Shown here: piece by piece, positions 1 through 46,276 of the stretch
Layout: each line of letters starts with the position of its first letter
Position numbering within the stretch: the stretch's first letter is position 1
Source: a virus
Lineage: Duplodnaviria; Heunggongvirae; Uroviricota; Caudoviricetes
Strand: one strand, 5' to 3'
Length of the DNA stretch: 64,000 nucleotides
Virus record (IMG/VR): IMGVR_UViG_3300031994_000017
Coordinates: 58,023 to 122,022 of that record
The notes under the pieces: model-generated
What the model saw: the letters and a program-made list of their open reading frames with translations, nothing else
Told to the model about the DNA's origin: nothing
Databases searched by the model: none
Program-made: the position numbers and the translations under genes

Positions 1-382
1 CAGTCTTTCCAACAAGCGGAATACCAATTGCCGCGATAAAAGACTCAAAATTAGTAGATTTTGCTGCTTCAATTGAATTGAGAATGCGGTCAACTGACTT
101 TATGCCAAAGCCAGGAAGTTGTTTCCATTCTTCTTCATGTTCTTTTAGATGAAAAATATCCGCAAAACTATTAATCCAACCTTTATCAATTAGTTTTTCA
201 AGAGTCGCCTTAGAGATACCTTTAATATCTAAGCCTTTTTTGCCGCAGAAGTGTTCAATTTTATTTAACCATTTCCCTTCGCAATCGGGATTAGTACAGT
301 AAAGTTGTTCTGACTCATTAATTGCGGTAGGCTGGCCACAAATCGGACAAGTTTTTGGAATTTCAAAATAAATTTTATTCAT
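1..382 (-). CDS. ligA: C-terminal fragment of an NAD-dependent DNA ligase (Zn-finger CxxC...CxC plus HhH), partial at the window edge; a separate ORF with its own start and SD
   Basis: Translates to MNKIYFEIPKTCPICGQPTAINESEQLYCTNPDCEGKWLNKIEHFCGKKGLDIKGI...IGIPLVG. The Zn-ribbon and helix-hairpin-helix pattern matches the LigA C-terminal domains. Confidence 0.6.
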   Translation of the reverse strand, partial: MNKIYFEIPKTCPICGQPTAINESEQLYCTNPDCEGKWLNKIEHFCGKKGLDIKGISKATLEKLIDKGWINSFADIFHLKEHEEEWKQLPGFGIKSVDRILNSIEAAKSTNFESFIAAIGIPLVGKT

Positions 383-989
383 CATCTACATATCTCCAAT
401 GTAATTTTCCGCAGGTTTTTCGCTAACCTCTACATACCATACAAATTTTAGACTAAGTAGTGTTTGGATTCTATCGGGCAGCTTCTGAAGCACTTTCATA
501 GATTATACCAGTTTCAATACACTAAACTTTTCTTTTTCTTGCTTCAGTTGCTTTTTGAGCATTTATTTTTCGCATCTTAGCCATCTCTTCTGGATGTTCT
601 TTTTGCCATTTAAGCATATCTGCTGCTCGAGCAAGACCAAATTCTGGATGCTATTTTTGCCATTCTAAAGCTGCTGGTAAAGCATTTGGAGAGATTGAAT
701 GAAAACCGCCTCGATTTATATTATATCCTTTTTGAGGATCTCTAGCTTCATACAATTCTATATAATAATCTTCTTTTTCAGAAATTAAATTGGGTTCCCA
801 ATCTCCTTCTTCTAAAATAATATGTTCAAAATTATTCCAACCATATTTTTTAATAGCTTGAGTAAAATGCTAATTTTCTTTATAACCATGTCCATTTGCC
901 CATCTATCATTTGGTTTTTTTTGAGTTGTATACCCAATATACACCTTATTATTTATTTTGTTTTTATGCATATAAATAAAACAATACAT
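375..989 (-). mobile_element. GIY-YIG homing endonuclease with a C-terminal NUMOD-like DNA-binding motif, inserted between the two ligA segments; contains 3 in-frame TAG codons
   Basis: Starts MYCFIYMHKNKINNKVYIGYT and contains NINRGG (GIY-YIG). The C-terminal GIIYESASEAAR resembles a NUMOD helix. It has its own SD (AAGGAG). The reading frame is only open if TAG is sense. Confidence 0.55.
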
Positions 990-1058
990 ATTTATCACTC
1001 CTTCTATGTAATATAATTTTTGGAATAATCATATTACATAGAATTGTCCCAAAAATGT

Positions 1059-2174
1059 TTATTCTTTTTCAGCTTTAACAACTTGAGGAATGATAGCATT
1101 TTGTTTACATACCCAAATTTTTTGACCCCGATAAGGTTTTTCACCTAAAAGTTCTCTCATAATATTAAGATTATGAAGACTTGCCCTCTCAATAATACTA
1201 TCACCGTCATCTACTGGTTCAAAAACAGCCACAGGAGTCAGAATACCGGTTCTTCCCATAGACCATTCAATATTAAATAATCTAGTTTCAAATTCTTCAT
1301 CATAGAATTTGTAAGCAATAGCATTTTTAAAATGGTGGTCAGTTTCACCTAGAGAATTACCATAAGAGATATTATCAAACTTAAATACTAGACCGTCAAT
1401 AGGATAACCTTCTTGTTTACAAAGATCTTGAATATCTTTAACCGCATAAGCAAGATTTTCTTGAATCCAAGGGACAACTTCAAAACCCAATTGCGCTAGA
1501 GTAATAAGTCTTCGTTTAAAAGAATTATTATTTTCTATATCGCCTTTAATTAAGTCCCAAGCGATAAAAGTTAAATTCCGAGCAGCACATTCTTTACTAT
1601 TTAACAATCTGATACTTCCAGAAGCAAAATTACGAGGATTTTTATATTGTCCAGAAAAAGGTTCAAAATTTTTGTAAGTACAAATAACTTCTCCATCTAC
1701 GATTGTTTCATTCAAATTTGAAATTTTCTTAGGAATAGAAGGAATTACCATAGCATTATGTGTAATATCTTCTCCAATTAACCCATTACCGCGTGTTTCG
1801 GCTTTGATTAATTCACCATTAAGATAAATCAATGAACAAGTTAAACCATCCATTTTTGCCATGGCGACAAAATCTTTATTACCTAAAAAACTTTCAATTT
1901 CATCTATACTCTTGGTTTTATCTAAAGATAACATTTTATGATTATGTTTTGACTTCTTTAGGTTATTGACTGTTGTATAAACAATATTATGGGTGGGGGA
2001 ATTGGGATAATAAATACCTGTTTTTTGTTCAAGTTGTTCTAATTTAAAATATAAATCATCCCATTCTTTGTCGCTAATGGTAGGATGTCCTTCATCATAC
2101 TCTTTAGTCCTATCATTCAGATATTTAATTAGTTGCGGAATGTAATTTGCATCTGAAATATCAAAATCAAACAT
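1059..2174 (-). CDS. ligA: N-terminal adenylation and OB domains of an NAD-dependent DNA ligase
   Basis: Motifs KMDGL (KxDG) and ETRGNG in the 371-aa ORF; stop is TAA. Confidence 0.7.
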   Translation of the reverse strand: MFDFDISDANYIPQLIKYLNDRTKEYDEGHPTISDKEWDDLYFKLEQLEQKTGIYYPNSPTHNIVYTTVNNLKKSKHNHKMLSLDKTKSIDEIESFLGNKDFVAMAKMDGLTCSLIYLNGELIKAETRGNGLIGEDITHNAMVIPSIPKKISNLNETIVDGEVICTYKNFEPFSGQYKNPRNFASGSIRLLNSKECAARNLTFIAWDLIKGDIENNNSFKRRLITLAQLGFEVVPWIQENLAYAVKDIQDLCKQEGYPIDGLVFKFDNISYGNSLGETDHHFKNAIAYKFYDEEFETRLFNIEWSMGRTGILTPVAVFEPVDDGDSIIERASLHNLNIMRELLGEKPYRGQKIWVCKQNAIIPQVVKAEKE

Positions 2175-2185
2175 ATTTTATCCTC

Positions 2186-2240
2186 TTTTTCTTTTCTTAT
2201 ATATATTATACAATATTTTTTTTAAAAAGTCAAATTTGGT
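2186..2240 (-). promoter_or_regulatory. Conserved phage promoter motif (copy 1) upstream of the ligA N-terminal ORF
   Basis: Minus-strand TTGACTTTTTAAAAAAATATTGTATAATATATATAAGAAAAG; -35 TTGACT and -10 TATAAT. Confidence 0.5.
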
Positions 2241-2304
2241 CCAAAAGAAAGAAAAATAGTGTATAAACTTTCATATATTAAAAAGAGGAAAGGAGAATAT
2301 TCTC

Positions 2305-2490
2305 ATGCCCATTATTTCAAAAGTGAAACTTCCTAATATAACTACACCTTATGATATTGGCGTAAATTGGGAAAATGTTAAAGATAAACCAAATGTGGGT
2401 GGAGTTGATGTTAGCGTGAGTGATGAGGATTTAAAAATAAAAACAAATAATAATATATTATTAGAAAGTGCCGAGGAGGTAAGTTTCTAA
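2305..2490 (+). CDS. Small hypothetical protein upstream of the plus-strand fiber gene
   Basis: 61-aa ORF with AGGAG SD. Confidence 0.4.
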   Translation: MPIISKVKLPNITTPYDIGVNWENVKDKPNVGGVDVSVSDEDLKIKTNNNILLESAEEVSF

Positions 2491-2492
2491 TT

Positions 2493-4439
2493 ATGAGTGA
2501 ATTATATAGTATTAAAGAAGAAACTTTAACAAGTATAGCAAATGCGATACGTAGCAAAAATGGTAGTTCTGATACTTATACGCCTGGCGAAATGGCAGAT
2601 GCTATTGCGGCGATTAGTAGTGGAAGCGTAGAACATCTGTCGTGGCATTAGTGTCCAGAGCTGGTGCGGAATTATCTGGTGGCAGCAGCCGCGGCATATC
2701 CAACTGCGGCAGCAGATTTTACTGTTATCAATGAAAATGATTATGGTGAAGTAATGTATCAAAACATCCCCGACGCTGTAAGCAATGCAAACTCAAAACC
2801 AATTGGATATACTATTGATGGCATTACGTTTTATAACAATGAACCTGGTGTAGCAACGCCTTTTGCTACAACAAACAAAGCTGGGACATTAATGGCTTTA
2901 GATTGGCTCAGATGGTATAATACGACATTGGCACCTAAGGCGGAAGGAAGCTAGTATCCGCGTGGAAAGAATTGTAGAGATCTTGGTGGTTGGGCTTGTG
3001 ATGGTGGTACAATTAAATATGGGATGCTCGTGCGCGGCTCTGAGCCAAATCCTGCCGATAAAGATTTAATGGTCAACAAAATTGGCATCAAGACTGAAGT
3101 TCAGCTCCTACCGGTCTCGGAACAAGGCACGAATTACAAAATGAAATCTCCATGGGGCATTGATTGGGCAGGAAATGACACAGAGGCTAGTTCTGTTTAC
3201 AGCATTACCGACAGCAAAGTGCTTTGGAAGAAGCTCCTCGAACCTATCATGGATTCTGTTATTCACAGCAAACCAGTTTACTTTCATTGTGGTGTTGGCG
3301 CAGATCGCACTGGTGTTATAGCTATGATGCTAGAAGGACTGCTTGGGGTAAGCAGAGCTAATGTAGATATGGATTTTGAACTTACGAATTTTGCGCTTGG
3401 ATGGAAAATAATTAATGGTAATGTATATCGTTCTAGAGCATACCCTACATATCAAAGTATGATGACGGCTTGGATGAGTGACAGTTCTAATCCTCTAGTT
3501 GGGGGATTAACAGATAGTTTTCGTAATCGCTGTATCTCTCATGTTTTGTCTTGCGGTATTAAAATTGATAAAATCAACGCTTTTCGTGCGGCAATGATTG
3601 ATGGAAACCCTGAGACGATCACCATTACAGTACCAGCTTACACAATCAGCAAGAGTGGAATTAATATCAATTTTGATAATCAAATTTCGTCTGTAAATGA
3701 AAATGACTCGTATAGCGTAGGTGTGACTCCGGCAAGCGGCTATGTGATTTCTGATGTCTCCATAACGATGGGTGGCGTGGACATCACGAGTCAGGTGTTC
3801 AGCGGAACTCCAACCACGCGCCGCGTCCGTGTAACAAACAATCTGGTAAACTGCTCCACGTCCAACAGCGCAAAAGTGGTTGAGACTGGAACGGCATATG
3901 CGGCTACGATCACCGCTGACGAAGGGTACACGCTTGATGGAGCAATAATAACTATTACAATGGGAGGAACTAGCATGAGTCAATATTATTCAAATGGTAC
4001 AATCAATATTCCTGCTGTGACTGGTGATGTTGTTATCAGCATTTCAGCGGTTGAATCTGTTCGGGAGAATCTATTTGATCCTACTAACGCACAATATAAT
4101 AAGAGAATCAGTTATAGTAGCGGCACAGAAAGAGACAAGACTGGCGGTTTGGTCACAAATATGATTGATATTACTAACATTAACACGCTTACTGTTGAAG
4201 GAATCACCGAGCTGGCATTGTTTGAATCCCTTTATGCTTTGGAAGCATACTATTCAACAGGCACGTTTGGTCAAGGATACCTTGGATACAGATCATCTAC
4301 GAGTGCTACATATGTTTTTGATGTCGCATCTTACAAAGCAGAGTATCCTACCGCTACGCACATTGCGCTCTACTTCGGTATCTCGACTGAAGCAATCTCG
4401 GCGGCAAATGTGGCAGATCTTGCTATTTATGGTAGCTAA
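2493..4439 (+). CDS. Tail-fiber or receptor-binding-like protein. It has an N-terminal anchor module shared with the 14195..16081 paralog, a Cys-based phosphatase domain (HCGVGADRTG, CX5R) and Ig-like repeats. It contains 2 in-frame TAG codons.
   Basis: ATG at 2493 after a GAGGAGG SD. Two in-frame TAG codons are read through. The N-terminus ETLTSIANAIRSKNGSSDTYTPGEMADAIAAIS parallels SNLTAIANAIRAKNGLSASYTPAQMPAAIGEIS of 14195..16081. The GC content is elevated. Confidence 0.5.
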
Positions 4440-4486
4440 AAAAGACATAACTATAATAAAATCTAAAATGCGAAAAATTAATTAAA

Positions 4487-4520
4487 TGAAAAGACGAGTC
4501 TTTAAAGACTCGTCTTTTTT
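4487..4520. terminator. Bidirectional intrinsic terminator between the convergent fiber gene and the topoisomerase gene
   Basis: AAGACGAGTC-TTTAAA-GACTCGTCTT perfect hairpin flanked by T/A runs. Confidence 0.6.
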
Positions 4521-6880
4521 TATATCTTACTTACTGATAAAATACGATTATCCTTTATAATAATATTACCTTGTGCCATGCGTCCTACTTGAGGAATTTC
4601 TTCAGCTTTTATACATAGACTATTATTATTACCAATAGCTAGTAAAGTATCGCTATTATTTACTATGGCCGCATCTTTTACATAATCATTATCATTTAAT
4701 TTACAGATTATTAAACCTTTACCGCCTCGGCTTTGTACCATTAGTTCATTTGTATTAGTCCTTTTGCCCATGCCTTCATAGGTAAAAACCGCCAAATCAT
4801 CATTTTTATCTCTAATAGGAAGAGCTTTTACAACTTGGTCATCATCTTTCAAAGTAATTCCTTTTAAACCAATAGTTGTTCTACCACTAGCAGGAATAGT
4901 TAAGCTGTTAAGTCTAAGCGCCATACCCTTTTTAGTTAAAATAACTACATCCTCATCATTCACTAAGAAAGCTGAAGCAATATTATCTCCTTCTTTAAGG
5001 TTAATAGCGGCCAAACCGGTCTTTTTCCGCGTCTTAGTATATTCTTCAAGACTAGTCTTTTTAGTAATTCCATTTCTAGTAACAAACATAACATACTTAG
5101 CGTTAGTATCTCGGTAAATAGAATAAATAGTAACAGGATATTCACCTGTTTCCATTTCAATTAAAGCATTTACCGGCATACCCTTAGAAGTATTATTGCC
5201 TTCTGGAATTTCATTTACGATAAGACGATACATATTACCCTTATTGGTAAATACCATAAGTTTGTCTACGGTATTAGTGCGCAACACCATATTTGTAATA
5301 TCATCTTTTGTTTTTACACCTTTAGTATTGCGGCGTTGGGTCCGGAAGGCGGAAATGGGAATACGCTTAATAAGACCGCTTTCACTCAAAATTACGACGC
5401 ATTTTTCAGGTTCAATATTTGCGATTTCTTTATCTTCATCTTTTGGTTCGGCAATTTGAGTTAATTCAGTTCTGCGAGGACGGCCATATTTCTTACCAAA
5501 GGTAATTAAACGTGTTAAGAAAATACTTTCTCGTTCTTGAACGCTATTTATAACTTTTAAAGCATTAGTTATTTTTTGCTCTAATTCAGCTTTTTCCTCA
5601 TTTAGTTCAATACTCTCTAGGTGCGCCAATCTACCTAACTTCATATCAACAATTGCTTTAGCTTGTTTTTCAGTGAAGTTATATTGTTGTTTTAATTTAA
5701 TAACTGCATCACTAGAACTATTAGATTTCTTAATGAGCGCAATGATATTATCTATATCTTCTAGGGCTTTAAGAAGACCATCAACAATTTCTTTGCGATT
5801 AAGCATTTTATTATAATCAAAAGAATATTCTTTCAAGATGCAATTAATGTTATGTTCAATATATATGTCTAAATATTCTTTTAAATTAAGAAGTTTAGGA
5901 GTTTTACCCACCAAAGCATACTGATTTGCATTAAAACTTTTCTGCAAATCAGTATTTTTATACAGAGCATTTAAGATTTTATGAATGTTTCCTTCACATT
6001 CAATTTCAATTAAAAGCTGTTTTTTATCACTTTTATTAGTTACATTGATAATACCAGGAATAGTATCTTCAATAGCCAGTTTTTTAATTTCCTCTATCAA
6101 TGGTTCTATATAAACTTGATAAGGTACTTCGGTAATTAGAATTTTATCTTTTTGTATTTCTGCCTTTGCGCGCAAAACGACTTTACCCTTGCCAGTTTCA
6201 TAAATAGACTTTAAATTATCTTTATTTATAATAATTCCACCAGTAGGAAAGTCTGGGGCCAAATTAGAATAATTTAGTTTTTTTGTTTCTACGTATTCTT
6301 TAATAACCGCGATTAACTCATTTAAGTTACTGGGCAACCATACATTTGCGATTGTACTACCGATTCCTTGGCAACCATTAATCATAAGTCGCGGAAAGAT
6401 AGCTGGTAAAACTACCGGCCATTCAGCATCTTCAGAGAAATTCTGTTTCATTGGGACATTATTTTTATTAATACCAACAAACATACCTTCTTCTGTTGAT
6501 TTGGCCAATCTAGCTTCTGTATATCTATCAGCGGCTGGTTCTCCGCTAATTTGGATAGAACCATTTGCTCCATGCCAATCTACTTCTGGAAGATTATTAA
6601 TCCAAGGCTGAGACATTCTCGCAAATGTTTCATAAACAGCTACGTTACCATGCGGCCACCAAGTTGCGATAGTTCCGCCGCTAATCTTAGCACTTTTTAC
6701 ATGAGGCTTATTGCTAGTATAACCTTTTGAATACATTTCCCAAAGACAAGCCCGTTGTCCAGGCTTAAGTCCGTCTCTCGCATCAGCAAAAGCTCTTTGG
6801 CAGTTTGCTTCATAAGAAAAATCCAAAAAGTTTTGACCTAATTCTTTATTAATATCAATCATTTTCATTAGCCTCCTCAC
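4520..6880 (-). CDS. Type II DNA topoisomerase, large (GyrA/ParC/T4 gp52-like) subunit
   Basis: DGLKPGQRACLWEM (compare GyrA DGLKPVHRRVL); 786 aa. Confidence 0.7.
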   Translation of the reverse strand: MRRLMKMIDINKELGQNFLDFSYEANCQRAFADARDGLKPGQRACLWEMYSKGYTSNKPHVKSAKISGGTIATWWPHGNVAVYETFARMSQPWINNLPEVDWHGANGSIQISGEPAADRYTEARLAKSTEEGMFVGINKNNVPMKQNFSEDAEWPVVLPAIFPRLMINGCQGIGSTIANVWLPSNLNELIAVIKEYVETKKLNYSNLAPDFPTGGIIINKDNLKSIYETGKGKVVLRAKAEIQKDKILITEVPYQVYIEPLIEEIKKLAIEDTIPGIINVTNKSDKKQLLIEIECEGNIHKILNALYKNTDLQKSFNANQYALVGKTPKLLNLKEYLDIYIEHNINCILKEYSFDYNKMLNRKEIVDGLLKALEDIDNIIALIKKSNSSSDAVIKLKQQYNFTEKQAKAIVDMKLGRLAHLESIELNEEKAELEQKITNALKVINSVQERESIFLTRLITFGKKYGRPRRTELTQIAEPKDEDKEIANIEPEKCVVILSESGLIKRIPISAFRTQRRNTKGVKTKDDITNMVLRTNTVDKLMVFTNKGNMYRLIVNEIPEGNNTSKGMPVNALIEMETGEYPVTIYSIYRDTNAKYVMFVTRNGITKKTSLEEYTKTRKKTGLAAINLKEGDNIASAFLVNDEDVVILTKKGMALRLNSLTIPASGRTTIGLKGITLKDDDQVVKALPIRDKNDDLAVFTYEGMGKRTNTNELMVQSRGGKGLIICKLNDNDYVKDAAIVNNSDTLLAIGNNNSLCIKAEEIPQVGRMAQGNIIIKDNRILSVSKI

Positions 6881-8762
6881 TGTGCGCTAAAAGATAAGCT
6901 CGTCTAGGTGGAACAGAAGGACCCAATAGACATTCAATCAAATTCTCAGTTTCTTTTATATCATTAACAACAAGTTGGGCAATATTACGAGTCTCAGGAT
7001 TTAGGAGCGCATCAGCAAGCTCTTCTGCGTCACTCTCGCCAAGGCCCTTGTTTCTGTTTATAAGATATTTTTCATTTTTATGAGCTTCTTTGTATTCTTC
7101 TAGTGCTTTATTATCTTTTAAAAAGATATATTGATTTTTCTTAGTGGTAATACGGAAAAGAGGTGGCATAGTTGTATAAACATGACCATTTAAAATTAAC
7201 TCTGGGCAAATCCACCAAAAGAACTCAATAAGTAAGTTACGAATAGCAGAACCATCAGCATCAGCATCAGCGCATAAAAGAATTTTTCCGTAACGTAATT
7301 TTTTGGTGTCATAAATAAGTTTATTAGTTTTAGGATTTAATTCAAGTCCTAATGCCTTAATAATATTTATTACTTCTTGATTTGCGAAAATCTTTTCACT
7401 ACTATTTTTATATGTTGAAATTAATTTTCCTCTAATAGGAAATACAGCATGAATTTCTGCTGTACGTGCTTCTACTAGTCCGGATGCGGCAGAGTCACCC
7501 TCCGCAATTAATAGCTCACATTTACTTCTATCCTTACCCCAACAGTCTACTAATTTGGTAGGAAGATTAAGTAATTTGTTTTTATTTCCTTTAAGTTCTT
7601 TATCTCTAACCGCGTTTCTAGCTTTTGCAGCAGCTTCACGAGCCTTTTTCGCCATTTTAGCTTTATCTGCAATAATTTTAATTTCTTTTTCATTCGCGGC
7701 CAACCATATGCGCAGCTCTTCAGCAATTGCCGCTGTATATGGCGTCATTTCAAGCTTCGTTACGCGCGTTTTTACCTGCGCATCATAGCCAACATTAGGA
7801 GCAGTAATATTAAATACAATATATAATCCTTCTTGAATATCTTCGCCAGAAAGATTATCTTCTCCCTCTTTAAGCCACTTTTTATCTTTAAAGAATTTAT
7901 TAAATTCTCTTGTCAAAAGAGATTTAATTTGAGTAATATGCGGACCAACGCTTGTGAGACCGGTATTGACATATGGAACCATAGTCATCGCATAGTTTGA
8001 GGTATATGTCATTACCATATCAATTTTATTTTTGCCATTAGCAAACTTTAAATCAAAGCGATGGTCAATTAATTCTTTACCTTTAACCGCTTCATCTACC
8101 AAATCATTTAATCCGTTTTTAGAAAAGTATGTTGTCTTTTCTCCATTGTTATTTAATTCAATAGTAAGACCAGGGCAAAGACATGAAACTGTCTTGAACA
8201 GGGCTTTCAGTTCACTTACATTTACTTCTGGATGTGTAAAAAATTCTTCACTTGGCTGCCAACATACTTCTGTTCCATCTGGTAGAGTAGTTTTTTCAGA
8301 CCAGCGTTTTTCAAATTCTCCCTCTTTAAAACGGATTTGTTCGCTATCACCATTACGATAAGTTTTAACAACTAACCAATGAGAAAGGAATGTTGTAATC
8401 TTTGAACCAATGCCAAAAGAACCAAGAGATGTACCTTCATATGTTCCATCTTCTCTATATTTACCCGAAGTATTTAATACACTAAAAGCGGCTTCAAGAA
8501 TAGTTTTTCCATCTTCTCTAAAAGAATTAGGAATAAAACCTTGACCGTAATCCCTTAAACGGCATTTTGTTCCTTCAATTTCAACTTCAATTTTATTTCC
8601 ATGCCCTAATCTAAATTCATCTACGGCATTAGAGAAAATTTCTACCAAAAGTTGAGTGGAATAGGTTGTGTCGCCCGCATAAACGCCTGGCCGCAAACGA
8701 GTAAATTCTAGTGGAGAAAGTGATTCAATTGATTTTTCATTATATAATGTTTTATCTGTCAT
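6855..8762 (-). CDS. Type II DNA topoisomerase, ATPase/Toprim (GyrB/ParE/T4 gp39-like) subunit
   Basis: GHKL-like N-terminus (EIFSNAVDE) and Toprim (LLIAEGDSAASG). Confidence 0.7.
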   Translation of the reverse strand: MTDKTLYNEKSIESLSPLEFTRLRPGVYAGDTTYSTQLLVEIFSNAVDEFRLGHGNKIEVEIEGTKCRLRDYGQGFIPNSFREDGKTILEAAFSVLNTSGKYREDGTYEGTSLGSFGIGSKITTFLSHWLVVKTYRNGDSEQIRFKEGEFEKRWSEKTTLPDGTEVCWQPSEEFFTHPEVNVSELKALFKTVSCLCPGLTIELNNNGEKTTYFSKNGLNDLVDEAVKGKELIDHRFDLKFANGKNKIDMVMTYTSNYAMTMVPYVNTGLTSVGPHITQIKSLLTREFNKFFKDKKWLKEGEDNLSGEDIQEGLYIVFNITAPNVGYDAQVKTRVTKLEMTPYTAAIAEELRIWLAANEKEIKIIADKAKMAKKAREAAAKARNAVRDKELKGNKNKLLNLPTKLVDCWGKDRSKCELLIAEGDSAASGLVEARTAEIHAVFPIRGKLISTYKNSSEKIFANQEVINIIKALGLELNPKTNKLIYDTKKLRYGKILLCADADADGSAIRNLLIEFFWWICPELILNGHVYTTMPPLFRITTKKNQYIFLKDNKALEEYKEAHKNEKYLINRNKGLGESDAEELADALLNPETRNIAQLVVNDIKETENLIECLLGPSVPPRRAYLLAHSEEANEND

Positions 8763-9208
8763 TATTTACCTCCTATTGGTTTTTCTTTTCCGGTCGCGAG
8801 CTTATCTGCTCTCTCGTTCCAGATATGGCCCGCGTGACCTTTAATTTTTTGGAGATTAATTCTATAACCTTTTTGATAATGCTCATAATATGCTTTTATA
8901 ATATCAAGATTTTCTGGAATTTTTTTATCACTTTTTATCCACCCATTATTAGCCCAACTAAACATCCAATTGGTAAGTGTATTGAAGCAATATGCGGAAT
9001 CAGTATATACTTCTGGATAAGGAGCTTCTTTTACTCCATACATAAGCATAGAATATAAAATAGCTTCTAATTCCATGCGGTTATTGGTTACATTTTCTTT
9101 TTGCTTAGCATATTCGCTAATTAAATATCCTTCATCGGCAACTACTACGACCCCAAAGCCGCCTGGCCCTGGGTTTCCGTGCGAAGAACCGTCAGTAAAT
9201 ATTTTCAT
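8762..9208 (-). CDS. rnhA: Ribonuclease H
   Basis: MKIFTDGSSHGNPGPGGFGVVV...NNRMELEAI...HAGHIWNERADKLA. Confidence 0.7.
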   Translation of the reverse strand: MKIFTDGSSHGNPGPGGFGVVVVADEGYLISEYAKQKENVTNNRMELEAILYSMLMYGVKEAPYPEVYTDSAYCFNTLTNWMFSWANNGWIKSDKKIPENLDIIKAYYEHYQKGYRINLQKIKGHAGHIWNERADKLATGKEKPIGGK

Positions 9209-9295
9209 TTATTTGCCTCCATACATTGACTTTTCAAAAAAAATTATTTATACTATTTATAGAGATTGAAAAATCAATTAATTTTATTATCTTTT

Positions 9296-9350
9296 TTCTT
9301 TATATAATATATTATATCATATTTTTTCATAAAAATCAAGCAAAAAATAA
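9296..9350 (-). promoter_or_regulatory. Conserved promoter motif (copy 2)
   Basis: TTGATTTTTATGAAAAAATATGATATAATATATTATATAAAG on the minus strand. Confidence 0.45.
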
Positions 9351-9399
9351 AAAAGGACTATATTAATATAAAATAATATAGTCCTTTTATTAAAATTTA

Positions 9400-10713
9400 T
9401 TACATTTTATTTGCTATTTCCGCGATTTTACTTCTATGAATTTGATTTAGTTCAATTTCACCATAAATATCTTCGCCTCTAAAAATTTTAGAAGCTCGAT
9501 ACATACCATTCTTTATACCTTCATAATTAGTTAAATCAACCTAGCTTTTTATATCACCATCTAGAATAAAAATAACATCTTCTCCTGCGCGCTATAATGC
9601 TAATTTTAATAATTCAACATCTAAATTTTGCGCTTCGGTAATATAAATACCGGCATTCATTCCAGAAGTATCATATCCTCTAATATCACTTATAGGCAAT
9701 AATATTAATTTTTCATTGTTTATTAACTATTCTACAATTAATTTACTACCTAATTTGCTTGCTAAAAAGTTGCCTATTTGAGAATCTAAAAGTTTAGCAT
9801 CTTTACTGCCTGGGTAAAAGCCAAGCTTGGCCGCATTTTTAGTCGCTACTGGATTACAAAAGATAATTATTTTATCTATTTTATTTTTTTCTAATAAATA
9901 GAATAAATAACCAATAGCCAAATAAGATTTACCTGTGCCCGCAGGCCCTTTTATCATTGTTATTTGGTTATTTAATAAGCTATCTGCTACCATAGCTTGA
10001 TAAATATCATCTTTATAAGGTTTAATTTCTCCTAATTGTTTAGAGCAAAAACTTTTGTATTTTAATGGACGAAAAGAATTTCCTAACCAGCATAAAGTAT
10101 CTACTCTATTTTTAGTTTGAGTTTCATAAATATTTAAATATTGATTTACTTTTAATTTTAAATCTTGCCCAAGTTTTTCTGGATAAGAATAAAAGTCAGC
10201 CATTTCTTCCTCATTAAGGTAAGCATCAATATATCCTTTATAATCATCTTTGATTTTTTCGCTTTTTACATTTTCTTTACCAAAGAATTGTTGAGCGATT
10301 ATTTTTAAAGCCAAATCATTAGTATAAAAAACACATTTTTCATCCCAATGAGTTTGTAAATAATTATAAGCTGCGGCAAGTATTTTACTATCATTATTTA
10401 TTTCAATATTTAAATCATGAAGCCAATTTTCAAAATTAGTTTTATAAATAATACAAGTATATTTATCAGGATTTTCATCTAATTGATGTAGTAGCTACTA
10501 TGCTTTACTTTTAATACTTGAATCTTTGTTTGCGGAAGTTTTTATATTTTCTAATTCTTTTAATGAAATATTTGTAATAACTATTTTGTCATTGGTATCA
10601 AAAATTTCTTCTGCTTTAATTAATAAGCTACTTGTGTCATATATTTTAGTCATTTTCATATTCTTCTCCTTCTTGCGGTATAGTAAAACCAATTGCGGAT
10701 ACATTATTTTCAA
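9400..10713 (-). CDS. phoH: PhoH2-like protein (PIN domain plus PhoH ATPase) with at least 6 in-frame TAG codons, including a TAG-TAG tandem
   Basis: The N-terminal PIN shows KIYDTSSLL and SLKELENIK. The Walker A is GPAGTGKS. The C-terminal ILDGDIKS[TAG]VDLT aligns with the conserved PhoH GD-x-TQ-I/V-DL motif (recalled from memory), placing TAG at a Gln. The true stop is TAA at 9400. Confidence 0.6.
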
Positions 10714-11029
10714 TATTTGTATTTGTTGCTATTTTTGTTTGATTTTCCGCAATCTTTAACGCTACTTCACTTTGTTTCTATTGGAACCAACTTGCGCACG
10801 TATTAAATATATTATCTAATACTGATACTCCCCAAGCGCCAAAAGAGAAGCCTAAGAAAAATATTGTTATTTTAGAAATAAGACATCATCCTCTCTTATT
10901 AATATATAGGGGTAATAATTTATTACCCCTATATGTATTATTTAGCAGTAGAGTTTTTATTTAAATAATTGATTTTAATTATCCAAGAGGAAAATTTTCT
11001 TTTTCCTTGTTTTCATTTTTATCAGAGTT

Positions 11030-11269
11030 CTATGAAATTTTTAATAAATTTTCTTTCTCAGCCTTTTTATAATAATATGCTTGACTTACCCCATAGGCAG
11101 TCCAAGGTAAAGCCACCATTGCGGTTAGCCAAGGCAATTCCGCGTATGCTCCTAAGAAAACACAAATAAAAGAAAGAGCAATAAGTGAAATTGTCATGAT
11201 CCAAATAAGAGCTGATTCTTGAATTAGTAATTTTTTAGAAAATTCTTTTTTTTTTTGTTCTTTCTTCAT
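11030..11269 (-). CDS. Small membrane protein
   Basis: Hydrophobic helices (ISLIALSFICVFLGAYAELPWLTAMVALPW). Confidence 0.35.
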   Translation of the reverse strand: MKKEQKKKEFSKKLLIQESALIWIMTISLIALSFICVFLGAYAELPWLTAMVALPWTAYGVSQAYYYKKAEKENLLKIS

Positions 11270-11307
11270 TTAAAATTATCTCCTTTTGGTAGGTATGCTT
11301 TAGGTGC

Positions 11308-11742
11308 TTAAGGGTTTTCTTTTATCGGATATTCGTATTTATGTTCGCAACCGAAAATAATATGATTTGGTGATTCTCCAAAATTATTACTATTGAATCC
11401 AATAGCAAACACATCCGCATCCATTCGATTAGCATATTGTATAGTATATTTTCCATTATATATATTACCAGGATAGTCATTTTCAGAATAGACGCAAACG
11501 TTTGGCATAGCATTAATAATTTCTTCATATGTTTTATCAAGTCTTAAATTATTAGTACCTTCAATACGTTCTATATTTACTATTAAGGCTGAAGAATCGC
11601 TGGAGTCATCACCAGATTCAGCATTCTCTTCAACAACATCAGCAATTTTATCCATTACAGATATTAAATTTTTATCCTCTGCTTCCTCACCACTAAGTGC
11701 GGTAAAAATTCTCTTTAATGGTTTTAATAAATTTAGTTTCAT
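11308..11742 (-). CDS. Hypothetical acidic protein
   Basis: 144-aa ORF. Confidence 0.35.
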   Translation of the reverse strand: MKLNLLKPLKRIFTALSGEEAEDKNLISVMDKIADVVEENAESGDDSSDSSALIVNIERIEGTNNLRLDKTYEEIINAMPNVCVYSENDYPGNIYNGKYTIQYANRMDADVFAIGFNSNNFGESPNHIIFGCEHKYEYPIKENP

Positions 11743-11764
11743 TGTTATTATCTCCTTTTAAAAA

Positions 11765-12880
11765 TTATTTTTTTTCAGTATAATCAAGGCAAATCCAACC
11801 AGCGCCAGATTTTAATTTGCCCCAATTATCCTTTTTATCAACAATAGTATATACACCATTTTTATAAATAACAGTTTTAACGCTATAATTGGCGCCTGGG
11901 CCGCTGCGGACATTAAGTGCGTTCGCGGTTACACGGATTACATAGGGGTCAAAAGCAGGGGCAGGTGGTTGCGTGCTGGCCGCAGCTTTAGTGAGATATT
12001 TTGTATTAATAGGGCTACTAATTGAACTCTTTTGGTCTTCTGATTTATCAATAACAGCTCTATCACCTTTAATAGATTTAATATACCATTTTTTAGCTAA
12101 TACCCATGAAGGAATTGCTTTTCCGTTGTAATAAGTTGCGCCAGATTTGATATCAACTAAATCGCCAGCCTTAAATTCTTCGGTAGTTGGGGGAGTCGGC
12201 GGTTCAGGCTCTTTTGCGGCTGGAGGAGTAGTTGCTTTTAAAATCGCAGAAACGTCTGCCCGCACATTGTTCATATCTTTATTGTATTTATTAAACCAAC
12301 TATAAATATCAGTGTGCGCGCCTCCAAGACCTAACTTATAGCTATCCCAGTGGCAAAGAATGGTAGGAACTTGAACGCCCTTATACTATACTGTGCCATT
12401 TGGATCAATATTAAACATATTACATAAATAGGCAGTTATTTCACAAGCTTCTTTATAAGCCTTATTAAAATAGTCCTAGCTTGTGTAGCCGTCATCACAG
12501 ATTTCAAACTAGATCCAAAATGGTCCACCAGTAGAACCATTACAACTACCTTTAGGTCCTGAGCCGCAGCCCCAAGGACGATAATTCCAAGGCATTGTTT
12601 GAACAGTGGTTATAGTTCCATCCGCCAGTTTACCAACCCAGCAGTTAAGACCAGCAGAGTGATGAATATGATTCCAATCATTCTTATAAGCATTTTTACC
12701 TAATAATTGAAGTAATTGAGCTTTATTTGCCGCATTATCATCTGGTTGAACATATCTGCGAAGTTCTGGGTTTCCACCAGCGGTATCATGCCAAAGAATG
12801 CCTACGGGTGTGCCTTTTGTGGTACCTTTATAGCAAGTACTCTATGTCATCATACAAACTAGAGGTTTATTATTTGTATT
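11765..12880 (-). CDS. Endolysin: an N-terminal catalytic domain that uses TAG codons, plus C-terminal tandem SH3b cell-wall-binding domains
   Basis: The C-terminus has KAGDLVDIKSGATYYNGKAIPSWV and VIRVTANALNVRSGPGANYSVKTVIYKNGVYTIVD (SH3-like). The N-terminus MKYNTNNK...GILWHDTAGGN... has a GGAGG SD at 12880 and 4 in-frame TAG codons. Confidence 0.55.
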
Positions 12881-12897
12881 ATATTTCATAAAAAATC

Positions 12898-13113
12898 CTC
12901 CTTTTATTCTTCTTCTTCTTTAGTTGGGTTATTTTTATCTACCCATGTTTTATTTCCATTTAAAATATATTCTTTTCCGCTATTTATTACATAAGCAGTA
13001 CTTCCCATTTTATCAGTAGTGCGTAATTGCTTTATATCTTCATCTGTATCTACTATATAAGTCTAAATACCATATGCTTTAATTCCATTAGAAGCAATAA
13101 TGCCTATAGACAT
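12898..13113 (-). CDS. Small hypothetical protein (1 TAG)
   Basis: MSIGIIASNGIKAYGI[TAG]TYIVDTDEDIKQL... Confidence 0.3.
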
Positions 13114-13210
13114 TTTATTTCCCTCCTTTTTTAATCTCTACTTTTTATAAAAAAGATATCGGTAAAATGAAGCAAAATGGCCCAAAAAGAAAAAGCCAGA
13201 GTGATTTATT

Positions 13211-13633
13211 TCACTCTGGCTTCTTATCTTCGTATTTGTTTTTAATGCGTGTCGCATATTCAGAATAAACATTTACAATATCTTTTTCAAATTTTTTACT
13301 TTGATAAATATAATCTTTAATTACTTCCAAATCATCTTCTCGTTGGCGGATTTGTCGCTGAAGCATTATTGCTTCATAACTCTTTGGATTATATTTTTTG
13401 CTTTTATTCATTGAATAATATAATTGCTTTAAGGCTTGTAATTGCGGTTTAATTTCATTTTCTCGGACGAAACATAAATATTTACGAAATGCTCTTCGTT
13501 CTGCGAGAGAACCGCCAATATATTCACTAAACCTATCTTCTGGATGACAATGAGCTTCTCCAGTAAAGGAAAATCCTTTGTAATCCATAACCGCAGTTGT
13601 TAAACCATTTTCCGCATTGAAAAAAGTTTCCAT
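13211..13633 (-). CDS. Hypothetical protein
   Basis: 140-aa ORF; a promoter motif lies upstream at 13640-13690. Confidence 0.4.
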   Translation of the reverse strand: METFFNAENGLTTAVMDYKGFSFTGEAHCHPEDRFSEYIGGSLAERRAFRKYLCFVRENEIKPQLQALKQLYYSMNKSKKYNPKSYEAIMLQRQIRQREDDLEVIKDYIYQSKKFEKDIVNVYSEYATRIKNKYEDKKPE

Positions 13634-13639
13634 ATATAG

Positions 13640-13690
13640 AACTCCTTTTTTCTTTTATTATATCATATATTTTTATAAAAGTCAAAACAA
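13640..13690 (-). promoter_or_regulatory. Conserved promoter motif (copy 3, more divergent)
   Basis: TTGACTTTTATAAAAATATATGATATAATAAAAGAAAA on the minus strand. Confidence 0.4.
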
Positions 13691-13724
13691 ATATTTATAT
13701 TAAGAGATATACTTGTTTTAATTA

Positions 13725-14041
13725 TTTCATTTGAACATAATCAATTTTAAAGTAATTGGTTCCATCTTTGGTTAACCGCAATGTGCCAACGGTATCATAA
13801 CCAAAAATAATAAAATCAATAAATTTGTAATAAGTATCACAAATATAACTAGTTAATTTACCCGTACAATTAGGTCCTTTAATTTCAATAGCTAAATCTT
13901 CATTATTTTTTGCTAAATTGAAAATATAATCCCAATTAAATTTAGCTTCTTCAATATTTTTACTTTCAAAAATAAGGTTTTTATTTTCCTAATAAGGATT
14001 ATCAGTAATAGTAATAGTAGGGATATAAATAGTCATAGTAT
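13725..14041 (-). CDS. Small hypothetical protein (1 TAG)
   Basis: MTIYIPTITITDNPY[TAG]ENKNLIFESKN... Confidence 0.3.
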
Positions 14042-14194
14042 TTTTTCCTCCTTAAAATTAATTAGCAATTAGATAAATATTATTTAGGCGTGTAAACATT
14101 CACGTCAACAAACAATTTATAAAAGGAAGTCTGCGCGACCTTAGTAGCATGACCAACACAACGATAATTGCTTCGCTTATGTTGATTCCCTCCC

Positions 14195-16081
14195 TTATGT
14201 GATTACTTCATTGATCGTGATGGTCCAATTTGCGCCGGACCCATAGCCCGCGATGCGCAGTAGCGGTCGGTTATTTACTGATTTCAGTGGCATATTATCA
14301 GGCGTCAGCGTCCATGTCATATTGCCGCTCGCATCAAAAGCGATTGTTCCATAGTTGGTGGATGTACCCTCCGTGAGATAACCGCCGCCAACAAAGGTCT
14401 CATCCGTATGGTAACAGCACCACGTTGCGTTGCTGTGTGTAGACTTTCGCATATCCACACCGCTCGTGCGGATGACAACAGTCTCGCCCTTGTCCACCCA
14501 CGGCGTCAGATCGATGAAGCCGGAGGTCGTGTAGCCAGTGGCAGCAGAAAGTGTGCCTTTGCTTGTGGACAGGCGATAGCCGTCTGTGTAGCCGATTGTG
14601 TTGATAAGGTTGGTATAACCACTCGTCACACAGGAAATCGTGATGTTCCCGGTCACATTTGCGATGGAGATTGTTCCATTATTGTATGCCGTCGCAGAGA
14701 TGTCCACGCCTCCCATTAAGACGGTCACGCTGCCGATGGTGTAGCCACTCGGAACGGTCAGTGTTGCGCTGTAGGTCTGGCCCTCTTCGATAGATGTCGC
14801 CATGTTAGAGATCTCCGCCTTGCCAAGGCTGTTGATCGTAATCGTGTATTGTGCCGTCACGTAGTTATAGGTCCGGTCATAGCCGGCGCCGTAATGGTCT
14901 GCGTATATGACACCGCGATCCAGGTCGATGCTCACCACGACAAAGGCCGTGTCCTGTCCGGAGTCAGCGGTCTTGTTGTAAGTAGTTGTTTCGCCGAACT
15001 CGACGCCATTAGATTCTGTTCCGCTATTGCGGCCATATTCGTTATTGCGTCCGAAGCAGACATTTGGTACCGCCAGTCGGACCACATCCATCTCACCCTC
15101 GTCGATGGCGCCACCAGAGTATCCGATGGCGTGGAGCTTGCCCATGAGGTAATTGTGAGTGTGCCCATGAATCTGCGCGATGAGCTTAGCACTGTTTTTC
15201 CCGGAAAAATTGTAGCTTATTGTTATTCCGTCATAAGCCAGTGAGACAGCGCTGCCGTTTAAGTATGCCTTGATTATCTGAGACACGCGGAAGGTCTGCC
15301 AGTCGATTGGGTGGTGACAGCAGATAATCACTCCCCAATTAGCTGCGTCGCTCTTGCTACCAACCTCGCCGAGCCGGTCGGCAAACCACTGTAGCTGCCT
15401 GCCGCTGATCCACAGGTCCTTCGATTGCGTGTCCGCTGTCGTCTCGGCGCTGTTAAGGCAGATCACCCGGATTTGCTTGGATACAAAGTCCTGATAGCAG
15501 TATCCGCCCTTGAGATTTTGCGGATCGACCGTGCCGGTGCTATAGACGCCGACCAGGTTATACATCTCGTCCCGATAGATCGGCGTGTGACCACCGAGGT
15601 CTGAGGAAAAGTGTAGATTATCATGGTTGCCAACACTATGGAACTGCGGCAGACTTCCGAAGGCGTCCGCGAGGTTGGCATGCATCTGCCTAATCTCCGC
15701 AACGCCGTTATCATAGGTTGTGTTGCTGCCGCCGGCGGTGGCATCTCCTAACCACATGCAGCAGTCGATCTCCAGTGCCCGGCGCAACAGGCTGGCCGCT
15801 TGTCCAGCGTGCTTTGCTGAGGTAACAAGCTGCGCGTTAGTGCGGTCGATGTGACTATCTGATAGCGCAAGAATGCGGAAACCATTCACGATCCCGTGGC
15901 TACTGACCTGATTGGCCACCCGGAGCGCCTCCTGTACCACATAACTGTCCGGATAGCTGCTGATCTCCCCGATCGCCGCCGGCATCTGCGCCGGGGTATA
16001 GGATGCGCTTAACCCGTTCTTCGCTCGAATCGCGTTGGCAATCGCGGTGAGGTTAGATTCTGTTATTAAAGCTTGACTCAT
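14195..16081 (-). CDS. Receptor-binding or tail-fiber paralog with a calcineurin-like metallophosphoesterase domain and Ig-like repeats; GC-elevated
   Basis: ILALSDSHID, GDATAGG, GNHDN and GHTHNY metallophosphoesterase motifs. The N-terminus is shared with the 2493..4439 protein. The repeat TLTVPSGYTIGSVTVLMGGVDIS resembles SVGVTPASGYVISDVSITMGGVDIT. Confidence 0.55.
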   Translation of the reverse strand: MSQALITESNLTAIANAIRAKNGLSASYTPAQMPAAIGEISSYPDSYVVQEALRVANQVSSHGIVNGFRILALSDSHIDRTNAQLVTSAKHAGQAASLLRRALEIDCCMWLGDATAGGSNTTYDNGVAEIRQMHANLADAFGSLPQFHSVGNHDNLHFSSDLGGHTPIYRDEMYNLVGVYSTGTVDPQNLKGGYCYQDFVSKQIRVICLNSAETTADTQSKDLWISGRQLQWFADRLGEVGSKSDAANWGVIICCHHPIDWQTFRVSQIIKAYLNGSAVSLAYDGITISYNFSGKNSAKLIAQIHGHTHNYLMGKLHAIGYSGGAIDEGEMDVVRLAVPNVCFGRNNEYGRNSGTESNGVEFGETTTYNKTADSGQDTAFVVVSIDLDRGVIYADHYGAGYDRTYNYVTAQYTITINSLGKAEISNMATSIEEGQTYSATLTVPSGYTIGSVTVLMGGVDISATAYNNGTISIANVTGNITISCVTSGYTNLINTIGYTDGYRLSTSKGTLSAATGYTTSGFIDLTPWVDKGETVVIRTSGVDMRKSTHSNATWCCYHTDETFVGGGYLTEGTSTNYGTIAFDASGNMTWTLTPDNMPLKSVNNRPLLRIAGYGSGANWTITINEVIT

Positions 16082-16102
16082 TTTTTATCTTACCTCACTT
16101 TC

Positions 16103-18688: not shown

Positions 18689-18709
18689 AATTTATATTTT
18701 CTCCTTTCA

Positions 18710-19840
18710 TCATTTTTATTTTGATGACTAGGATTTTTCTAATAAAGCTAAATAATTTTTCTAAATTCTTTCATCTAAAGGAGCTAGCTATAAGGCTTTT
18801 AAAGCATTTTTTAAACCTTTCTCTATATCATTAAGATAAAAACAAGAAATAGCAATTGTATCATACGGACCTTCGCGCCAGACGACAGCGCGTTCAGTCC
18901 AGTCAAAATGCTAATGACTTTTCGCCAATCCCTCTTCCATGAAAGCAAGAGCAATATTATACAGCCCTAGATCATTATATATAGTGGCAAGATTATAATA
19001 TGGTTCTCTATATGTATAATCTAATATTAATTGTTGATTATAGTATTTTATTGAGGTAGCAATATCATTTTTACAACGATAAATATCTCCCAAATAACCC
19101 GTTACACAATATTCGACAAGCGGGAATGTTTTAATATCATCTCTGGCAAGACATAATTTAAACTATTCTATTGCTTTATCAAATTCTCTAAAATTACCAT
19201 ATTCTCTACCTAAGAGATAATAACCATAAGTATCAGTAGGATCTTCTTCAACCCGCAGTTTTAACAAATCTAAATAATTAGATCGTGATTTTTCCTAGTC
19301 GGGATAGTGATGTAAGGTAATAGAATTACCGAAATCAATTAAATGACCTCCTTGTATTTCTGCGGCTAATTCTTTGTATCCTCCAGGAGGTAAAAGAACT
19401 TCATGAACCGCGAAATGCCATTGATACCCATGGATATGCATTTTATCATACCAAAATGTTTCAGCGGGTTCTCCTGTTGGGGTATGTGACCAAATATACC
19501 GATAATGGCCACGCCAAGTATTTTCTGTCCAATTATTGCGAATTAAATCACCCCAACCGGGTTCAAGTAATTCGTCTAAATCAGTGCAAAATAAGATATT
19601 AGCATCTTCTGGCACAAGTTTTAATGATTCATTGCGGGCAACATCAAAACGCCAAGGTTTAATTATTTTTTGTTCTATTCTTGTTACTCGTGAATCATTT
19701 TTAAAAAATTCATATGTTCCATCGGTTGAGCCGGTATCTAAAATTACTATATAATCGGCCTCTGACATTGAATCAAGCCATTTGGCAGCAAATTTCATCT
19801 CATTTTTACATATAGCGTAAATACAAACTTTATTTTCCAT
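18710..19840 (-). CDS. Family-2 glycosyltransferase fused to TPR repeats. It contains TAG codons and an apparent +1 frame change near 19195.
   Basis: GT2 N-terminus (CIYAICKNE...ILDTGSTDGT...DLDE). The TPR text continues in the +1 frame after ...YYLLGRE|LW*. Confidence 0.4.
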
Positions 19841-19923
19841 ATATAATCTCCTTTATCTCATTTACATCAAGAGGTGACCATTAGGCCACCTCTTGATAGT
19901 TATAATTTTTATTAAATTGTTTA

Positions 19924-22222: not shown

Positions 22223-22373
22223 AAATTAATTTTGACCAAAAAAATTCTTACGTATTAATCTATTCAATATGATTCTAATTATTAAAATAATACCATATAA
22301 GTTGTTTAACCTAAGGATTATAACTATCATCAAAATCATAATAATTAAATACTATTCCTATATTATTAATAGA

Positions 22374-46217: not shown

Positions 46218-46276
46218 AATATAAAAACAAGACAGTATATTAATTGCTTTATCCTCTAAGCTAACTTTCCTATTCA

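Follow-up and report, generated by a model that had tools for sequence, protein, structure and literature searches.

Candidate exchangeable tail proteins with different phosphoesterase heads in a TAG-recoded phage

Phages with multiple receptor-binding proteins are known to combine conserved N-terminal anchor peptides with swapped enzymatic heads, as in the 'anchor-branch' depolymerase systems of Klebsiella phages and the tailspikes of CBA120. In this study we compared two genes that may follow a similar plan, gene A (2493-4439, plus strand) and gene B (14195-16081, minus strand), in a 64,000-nucleotide stretch of DNA, here called the window, which covers positions 58,023 to 122,022 of the IMG/VR record IMGVR_UViG_3300031994_000017 (Caudoviricetes). 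The window belongs to a phage of approximately 150 kb that is recoded from TAG to Gln and carries a suppressor tRNA with a CTA anticodon, and whose host is most likely one of the gut or rumen Clostridia. It is suggested here, with reasonable though far from complete confidence, that A and B are exchangeable distal tail proteins for host recognition with phosphoesterase heads. Each would begin with a two-helix N-terminal docking module of about 40 residues, continue with a phosphoesterase head and then one or two Ig-like spacers, and end in a C-terminal beta-sandwich. The module would dock on the protein whose gene lies just upstream, at its aromatic C-terminal tail (...S-F/Y); this partner would be an 861-residue tail fibre in the case of B and a 61-residue protein in the case of A. 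At the cell surface the heads may bind and hydrolyse phosphate esters of wall glycopolymers.

Exchangeable enzymatic tail proteins are of a known kind, and interest lies mainly in phosphoesterase heads that are uncharacterised and in a docking module that is very widespread. As they are generally described, the Klebsiella and CBA120 systems share with A and B a short conserved N-terminus and heads, catalytic or binding, that can be interchanged and are exchanged horizontally. However, the heads here are phosphoesterases and not glycanases, and docking seems to occur via the C-terminal aromatic tail of the upstream protein, of which we know of no earlier description. A further comparison can be made with glycerophosphodiester phosphodiesterases (GDPDs), although their fold and family are unrelated to those of A or B. 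GDPD domains in the tail modules of Staphylococcus and Enterococcus phages have been proposed to cut wall teichoic acids (PMC10194240), and the likeness lies in an enzyme on the tail of a Gram-positive phage which processes a phosphate-linked wall polymer, as is proposed for A and B. The difference is that A has the Cys-based fold of the protein tyrosine phosphatases (PTPs) and B a calcineurin-like fold, neither of which is among the five lysin types of that survey (PMC10194240). Our literature search found nothing specific on PTP-fold or calcineurin-like domains on phage tails, and no characterised relative of A or B was found.

The phosphoesterase heads of A and B

Translation confirms a coding region at both places. 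Gene A comprises 648 codons when TAG is read as Gln, and its product can be divided into the N-terminal module (residues 1-43), a conserved region with no assigned fold (46-155), a PtpB-like Cys phosphatase (156 to about 370), two Ig-like repeats (about 371-518) and a C-terminal beta-rich domain (about 519-648). The phosphatase domain lies at 2958-3602. Pfam Y_phosphatase3 (PF13350) matches residues 156-302 with an E-value of 3.4e-19 (70.2 bits against a curated cut-off of 22.2), the fold in a homolog model reaches to about residue 370, and the same family is matched by all 46 aligned A-family members. In the alignment of 46 homologs the P-loop HCGVGADRT, of CX5R type, falls at 3285-3311, and H265, C266, G267, G269, A270, D271, R272, T273 and G274 (HCGVGADRTG) are invariant. 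A structure was modelled for P0122, a homolog 71% identical to A over the full length (mean predicted local distance difference test score, pLDDT, 79, with residues 45-150 poor). In a Foldseek search of the PDB this model matched the C. difficile PTP 8dhj (E 3e-6) and M. tuberculosis PtpB 1ywf (E 5e-6), and its PTP-fold matches (8dhj, 8dhi, 1ywf and 2oz5) range in E-value from 3e-6 to 3e-5 at a probability of 1.0. The P-loop, family match and fold bear out the Cys phosphatase that the original prediction had placed in A, and the head is predicted to be PtpB-like.

M. tuberculosis PtpB and the C. difficile PTP are single-domain enzymes. A resembles them in its Pfam match (70 against 22 bits) and HCxxGxDRTG P-loop, and they are its best fold matches, but their chains have about 240-265 residues compared with the 648 of A, which adds a phage N-terminal module, Ig-like repeats and a C-terminal beta-rich domain, and fold identity is 13-18%.

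Gene B is an uninterrupted ORF (open reading frame) of 628 codons with no TAG and a GC content of 54.1%. Its product has the N-terminal module at residues 1-42, a calcineurin-like metallophosphoesterase at about 46-400, one Ig-like domain at about 401-488 and a C-terminal beta-sandwich at about 489-628. The metal-binding motifs, encoded at 15155-15859 on the minus strand, are D75-x-H77, G112-D113, G151-N152-H153-D154, H256 and H305-G306-H307-x-H309, and these five motifs (DxH, GD, GNH[DE], H and GHxH) are invariant in 42 homologs. B itself falls below the threshold of PF00149, with no hit even at E-values up to 10, and has no sequence match among PDB sequences; PF00149 is matched by 23 of the 42 aligned family members (best E 3e-10). 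The model of B (pLDDT 89) had 38 Foldseek matches in the PDB at E <= 1e-3, the best 33 of which are all metallophosphoesterases, and the matches include SMPDL3B (E 5e-10), acid sphingomyelinase, purple acid phosphatase, Lmo2642, LpxH, Mre11 and SbcD. Motif set and fold matches agree with the original prediction in assigning a calcineurin-like metallophosphoesterase to B, and the nearest fold of this head, predicted to be a binuclear enzyme, is that of the acid-sphingomyelinase-like phosphodiesterases. Members of the acid sphingomyelinase/SMPDL3 and purple acid phosphatase branch are the best structural matches (E 5e-10 to 1e-8) and the full set of metal-binding motifs is present in B, although identity to B is 12-15%. 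The substrates of the eukaryotic acid sphingomyelinase and SMPDL3 enzymes, which include sphingomyelin and nucleotides, are not transferable to B.

Among the predicted viral structures of BFVD, the model of B matched a 651-residue gut-virome protein (E 3e-56), several 'Metallophosphatase domain protein' entries and a 'Virion protein with calcineurin-like phosphoesterase domain [Enterococcus phage Idefix]' (A0A1M4NET6, E 6e-15). The predicted folds of the Idefix protein and of the virome Siphoviridae and Myoviridae entries thus resemble B at E-values from 6e-15 down to 3e-56, but their sequence identity to B is just 12-32% and no function has been described for them. Matches to 'Tyrosine phosphatase family protein' entries of virome Myoviridae (E about 2e-19) presumably arise from common non-catalytic domains.

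Teichoic-acid phosphodiesters had been suggested as substrates for both proteins. For B this is plausible: phosphodiester-bridged wall polymers are a chemically reasonable substrate because its nearest folds are phosphodiesterases, and B may cut such bridges. For A the suggestion is chemically awkward. The PTP fold is known for phosphomonoesters, namely those of phosphoproteins, phosphoinositides, inositol pyrophosphates and glucan phosphates, and a teichoic-acid phosphodiester is therefore less likely as a substrate; A would more likely remove phosphomonoesters.

The N-terminal module and its upstream partner

The common N-terminal module of about 45 residues and the common Ig-like repeats of the original prediction were both recovered by BLASTP. 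The module aligns between A 7-43 and B 6-42 with 62% identity (E 4e-9), and the Ig-like region between A 449-561 and B 417-526 with 39% identity (E 5e-13). A further alignment joins A 371-485 to B 400-523 (E 5e-8), so that the two Ig-like repeats of A each align to the single Ig-like domain of B. The Ig-like motif that had been quoted is present in the translations, as TPASGYVISDVSITMGGVDIT in A and VPSGYTIGSVTVLMGGVDIS in B. The C-terminal profiles of the two proteins are not significantly alike (probability 2.7%).

Within the six-frame translation of the window a profile of the module matches A and B only. A profile search of 1.84 billion representative proteins gave 19,262 clusters at E <= 1e-3 and 4,143 at the stricter E <= 1e-10; nearly always the module was located at residues 1-50, in proteins of 61-648 residues. 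With many different C-terminal domains across the 19,262 clusters, the module shows the conserved N-terminal region and variable distal part that are expected of receptor-binding or tail-fibre proteins. Fusion partners in the 106 module proteins scanned were LRR_5 of the BspA type (26), DUF285 (15), LRR_8 (10), DUF6273 (4) and Kelch propellers (2), as well as DUF4082, PKD and Big_3. The module itself also seems exchangeable, since some members of the B family carry another N-terminus. Stand-alone module proteins of 44-83 residues exist, and many of those read end in ...SF. At two of the related loci compared here, which are referred to by number (L013 and L014), stand-alone module genes lie in prophage tail ends just ahead of holin and endolysin genes and beside genes for LRR_5, DUF6273 and GT2 proteins. 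In one relative, L002, a B-like gene (2306-5739) seems to have been split by an insertion sequence: a 43-residue module ORF (2306-2437) is parted from the remainder (3922-5739) by a Transposase_mut gene on the opposite strand (2563-3801).

At 22 of 24 loci, or in 11 of 13 clearly distinct contexts, F or Y is the last residue of the ORF immediately before the module-bearing gene, compared with a background of 7.5% of ORFs of at least 100 residues (binomial P 3e-11 on the conservative set, 11/13). These loci are the window (2305-2490 and 16103-18688), L001, L008, L009 and L013-L046. The stop codon of the upstream ORF often overlaps the ATG of the module-bearing gene. In the window the tail fibre before B ends in ...NANTTSY and the 61-residue ORF before A in ...ESAEEVSF; elsewhere the ends are ...SAETASF (L008), ...SAESTSF (L009), ...SAEGGTF (L014) and, in many Oscillospiraceae prophages, ...DGSEVSY. 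The 61-residue ORF (2305-2490, plus strand) stops 2 nucleotides before the ATG of A and is the proposed docking partner or adaptor of its module; its C-terminal SAExxSF resembles the upstream-ORF ends in L008, L009 and L014. It had no PHROG match and no significant similarity to fibre N-termini in the window.

These patterns suggest end-to-end docking of the module on the aromatic tail of the upstream protein. The idea can be taken further, as a tentative and somewhat doubtful possibility, to a general plug-and-socket code in phages of gut Clostridia, in which any head attached to the module (LRR, Kelch, DUF6273 or two unrelated phosphoesterases) could be swapped across GC content and genetic code. 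Included in the same conjecture is that A would be the first PTP-fold enzyme to act from a virion on phosphorylated cell-wall glycopolymers, in the manner of a glucan phosphatase with binding modules.

How phages of strictly anaerobic Clostridia from gut and rumen recognise their hosts has hardly been studied. If A and B are tail-borne phosphoesterases, phosphate-linked wall polymers would be indicated as receptors, and two enzyme folds would be added to the virion-associated enzymes. The module and the rule for the upstream C-terminal F/Y may also offer a simple sequence handle, of use in the search for receptor-binding genes of metagenomic phages and in the design of head swaps.

Recoding, composition and origin of the genes

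The original prediction took 2493-4439 for an ordinary ORF and overlooked the recoding. TAG stands in frame at codons 53 (2649-2651) and 154 (2952-2954), so the region is a gene only with TAG as Gln, and the standard-code ORF list, from which 2493-4439 is absent, splits the same frame into 2664-2954 and 3024-4439. Codon 53 aligns with the invariant Gln of a WHQCPE motif in full-length homologs (19 of 19 homologs have Gln opposite it, and it is invariant in 46 sequences). Codon 154 is at a variable site (V, E, S, K or Q in homologs), two codons ahead of the Pfam phosphatase match. The full-length homologs of A have about 630 residues, and A is about 70% identical to intact homologs on either side of the TAGs. 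A 150,422-bp ENA contig has the same sequence, annotated there with a 648-residue Y_phosphatase3 product, and the sequence recurs in assemblies from JGI and Logan. Judged by these alignments, A is an intact recoded gene and not a pseudogene.

When TAG is read as sense in the translation of the window, many broken minus-strand ORFs join into long genes; the fused genes at 16103-18688, 22248-25982 and 9400-10752 contain ten, 18 and six TAG codons, respectively. The suppressor tRNA (46142-46218, minus strand) has the anticodon CTA, which reads TAG, and is one of 31 tRNA genes found by ARAGORN in the window, all on the minus strand. That Gln is inserted at TAG is suggested by alignment: TAG matched a conserved Gln at all four positions checked (codon 53 of A, codons 16 and 127 of the endolysin, and codon 307 of the B ortholog in L001), and in L011, a recoded and otherwise dissimilar phage, TAG likewise stands at the WHQCPE Gln of the A-like gene. 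Comparison of the CTA tRNA with the tRNA-Gln(TTG) of this phage gave no evident support for a recent origin of the first as a copy of the second. Another tRNA in the array (54270-54345, minus strand) has a four-base anticodon (ttgt), and its identity was left undetermined by ARAGORN.

The distribution of TAG differs between early and late genes of the window. By codon counts it is absent from the early replication genes (ligase, GyrA, GyrB and RNase H), whereas in most tail, lysis and PhoH genes it makes up 20-55% of the Gln-type codons (CAA, CAG and TAG), with CAG nearly gone. In published recoded gut phages the early genes are unrecoded and recoding has been proposed to delay late genes (bioRxiv 10.1101/2021.08.26.457843); TAG-recoded gut phages with suppressor tRNAs are also covered in PMC10607447, and the split in the window fits the pattern published in both. 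With its suppressor tRNA and recoded late genes the phage resembles the gut phages recoded from TAG to Gln (code 15). It differs from the TGA-recoded Agate phage of that preprint, which preferentially recodes the tail protein at the position just upstream of its lysis cassette, in that B occupies this position and has no recoded codons. B has 14 CAG and no TAG, compared with two CAG and two TAG in A, where TAG accounts for 2 of 11 Gln-type codons, while the resident late genes counted have 0-2 CAG each and TAG in all except two short ones. On these CAG and TAG counts the pair may show a foreign gene in the course of adapting to a recoded genome. Because of its TAG codons A is expected to be translated no earlier than the suppressor tRNA becomes active, in line with the model published for late genes that are recoded.

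Both genes had been thought to have about 50-55% GC in a genome of about 30%. The window has 34.9% GC, and only B lies in the stated range. Compared with 50 minus-strand genes of the window (mean GC 33.7%, standard deviation 5.2; mean GC at third codon positions, GC3, 23.8%, standard deviation 7.3), B is an outlier with 54.1% GC (z 3.9) and 65.1% GC3 (z 5.7). A is within range at 42.5% GC (z 1.7) and 35.6% GC3 (z 1.6), and three other genes equal or exceed its GC. The GC3 of B is 0.53-0.82 over its whole length, with a sharp GC step at both ends. At the 5' end GC switches about 10 codons inside the ORF, the first 10 codons having about 30% GC, and at the 3' end an intermediate GC extends for about 75 nucleotides beyond the stop. 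On composition the foreign segment can be placed at approximately 14120-16051 on the minus strand.

It might be argued from the two in-frame TAGs in A and the abrupt GC jump at B that A is a pseudogene with two stops and B an assembly chimera or contamination. However, TAG is read as Gln across the window and A is conserved on both sides of its TAGs. The four contigs retrieved, one from an ENA assembly, one from a JGI metagenome and two from Logan run assemblies, carry B and its two junctions at 100% identity, which excludes a chimera, and an artefactual origin of the two genes is scarcely credible.

The closest relatives of B are 65-68% identical and are found in contigs of 53-57% GC. One of these B-like genes (L003, 54.8% GC) follows genes for proteins of 1589, 712 and 101 residues, and another relative is in a prophage-like region beside bacterial genes (L002). 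In GTDB species genomes B-like genes are present in Oscillospiraceae, Acutalibacteraceae, Ruminococcaceae and further Clostridia, with human gut, goat and rumen as sources, and the 33 genomic B-like loci have GC contents of mostly 44-66%, with one lower at 37%. L001 is a syntenic, TAG-recoded relative of the window phage with 34% GC. Proteins of the two phages are 98.6% identical for RNase H, 90% for the 140-residue gene just downstream of B, 83-89% for the endolysin and 78% for a glycosyltransferase, but only 62% for B, whose ortholog in L001 has 38.8% GC and two TAG codons. A block of 4.3 kb (13687-18036, minus strand), which takes in B, a 104-residue gene and two thirds of the tail fibre on its C-terminal side, has no nucleotide similarity to L001, whereas its flanks are 80-93% identical. 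This cassette comparison is with one syntenic relative; a search of IMG/VR for others, by way of the glycosyltransferase next to the fibre, found none.

Taken together, the sharp GC steps, uniform GC3, lack of TAG among recoded neighbours, relatives at 53-57% GC and divergent block support the view that B is a recent replacement of a resident allele from a high-GC, standard-code prophage or phage lineage. The recent acquisition, or host-range cassette, that had been suggested for both genes, and the swapping expected from comparison with related phages, are thus upheld for B against the one relative compared, but not for A, which is no compositional outlier. A-like genes in relatives are more GC-rich than their own contigs (53.6% against 44.1%, 49.8% against 36.4% and 37.4% against 32.6%), which is consistent with frequent transfer of these genes. 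An invertible or shufflon-like cassette around A was also considered, and rejected: no meaningful inverted repeats flank 2200-4500, and the sole inverted match between A and B is their shared MGGVDI coding motif.

Genomic context and proposed role

On the minus strand the gene order is that of a 1244-residue protein, small fibre-like proteins, a 416-residue repeat protein, a glycosyltransferase, the 861-residue tail fibre, B, three small genes, the endolysin, genes of 144 and 96 residues, PhoH, RNase H, GyrB and GyrA. The tail-fibre gene (16103-18688), with ten TAG codons and weak PHROG matches to phrog_8713 and phrog_2636 (tail fiber), encodes the proposed carrier of B; the start codon of B is 21 nucleotides after it and lysis genes follow, the cassette being marked by the endolysin (Amidase_2 and SH3; 11765-12889, minus strand; four TAG codons). 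A is placed between the gyrA and NAD-dependent ligase genes on the strand opposite to theirs, and would form with its upstream ORF a two-gene unit within the replication module. A bidirectional hairpin resembling an intrinsic terminator (4488-4519, stem of 13-14 bp, T runs on both sides) separates the convergent ends of A and gyrA. As had been predicted, A is the sole large plus-strand gene: other plus-strand ORFs lie over tRNA genes or over minus-strand genes with family matches, and one, at 36330-36953 (207 codons, two TAG, GC3 0.54), lies over two shorter minus-strand ORFs, its coding strand being ambiguous.

As to position in a tail module, then, B is next to a fibre gene and A is in the replication region, while family members elsewhere are at tail ends. 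B-like or A-like genes end tail or lysis modules in L002, L003, L009 and L011. In L002 the A-like gene comes directly after the B-like gene; in L009, a 146-kb phage, it follows the endolysin and is beside an integrase; and in L011, a 181-kb recoded phage, it follows an 851-residue Big_13 protein. In L008 an A-like gene is upstream of integrase, terminase and YonG/YonD-family genes. A pairing of diesterase and monoesterase as a general feature was rejected, as none of 33 B-like loci had it and the two genes occur together only in the window and L002.

An architecture of enzyme plus wall-binding modules is also typical of endolysins. A and B could accordingly be soluble accessory lysis or receptor-destroying enzymes which, released at lysis, strip phosphate-containing wall polymers, either in aid of the endolysin or so that progeny do not stick to debris, with the Ig-like and beta-sandwich domains serving to bind the wall. 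B and many of its homologs are directly beside holin and endolysin genes, and A and B lack a signal peptide, as this reading would have it. However, the module is coupled to the C-terminus of the upstream protein, often with overlapping stop and start codons, LRR, Kelch and PKD binding heads occur as fusions to this module, and the divergent block covers the fibre C-terminus together with B. Because of this coupling, these fusions and this block, assembly with a fibre fits better than a free enzyme, and we regard a role in lysis as rather unlikely.

The position of A among replication genes could also suggest intracellular phosphatases for host takeover or anti-defence, which would dephosphorylate host proteins or lipids or degrade signalling nucleotides. 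Enzymes of the PtpB and metallophosphoesterase families often act on proteins, phosphoinositides and cyclic nucleotides, and Lmo2642 is among the fold matches of B. Such a function is difficult to reconcile with the Ig-like repeats and the C-terminal beta-sandwich, with the position of the family at tail ends, with recoded TAGs in A that are absent from the early replication genes of the window, and with surface-recognition domains as the other partners of the module, and it appears quite improbable.

We therefore return to A and B as exchangeable tail proteins. A role in receptor binding is suggested by gene position, the common N-terminal module and fold matches to virome proteins, one of which is named a virion protein; this match, of the B model to the Idefix protein, is the sole hint of presence in the virion. 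Several observations weigh against the proposal. The Idefix label is a name given by its depositor and the Idefix paper is silent on that protein, and virion proteomics, a structure or an assay was found for no family member. In tblastn searches of INPHARED phages B was without a hit and A had a single weak one, and a profile search of the C-terminal domains of both proteins against PDB sequences gave no significant match. A is located among replication genes and not tail genes, its 61-residue upstream partner has no detectable virion link by PHROG search or by comparison with the fibres of the window, and no A-like gene lies within 6 kb at any of the 33 genomic B-like loci. The model for A is based on a homolog and is of low confidence at residues 45-150, and to our knowledge PTP-fold enzymes are not known to cut phosphodiesters.

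Some further features of the region were observed. An Rfam scan of positions 1-20000 of the window found nothing. Within the tail-fibre cluster a glycosyltransferase (phrog_13126) with TPR repeats is encoded at 18716-19840 (minus strand, six TAG codons), and in the prophage-like locus L013 a GT2 gene (5030-6004) is likewise beside module-bearing genes. The 861-residue tail-fibre gene contains a perfect 21-nucleotide tandem duplication at 17060-17101, which gives the peptide SEILFYP-SEILFYP. The 104-residue gene at 13722-14036 (minus strand, 23.5% GC), between B and the conserved 140-residue gene, has no counterpart there in L001 and no family match. Two small proteins encoded at 27079-27693 and 28388-29146 (minus strand) look by eye like phosphoesterases (GDxxxG, GNHD/GNHE and GHTH) and are without the N-terminal module. 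A 380-residue protein (32502-33641, minus strand) matched phrog_1211, '2-aminooxy adenylosuccinate synthetase' (PurZ-like), with an E-value of 5e-36; in the event of a genuine PurZ, 2-aminoadenine might take the place of adenine in this phage, and an ordinary PurA-type enzyme is also possible. Comparison with L001 brought out two interruptions in that phage. Its gyrB (L001 17494-20465, against 6855-8762 in the window) is called in two pieces of 510 and 66 residues with a GIY-YIG gene between them, and its endolysin region is interrupted by a NUMOD3 gene, whereas both gyrB and the endolysin are intact in the window.

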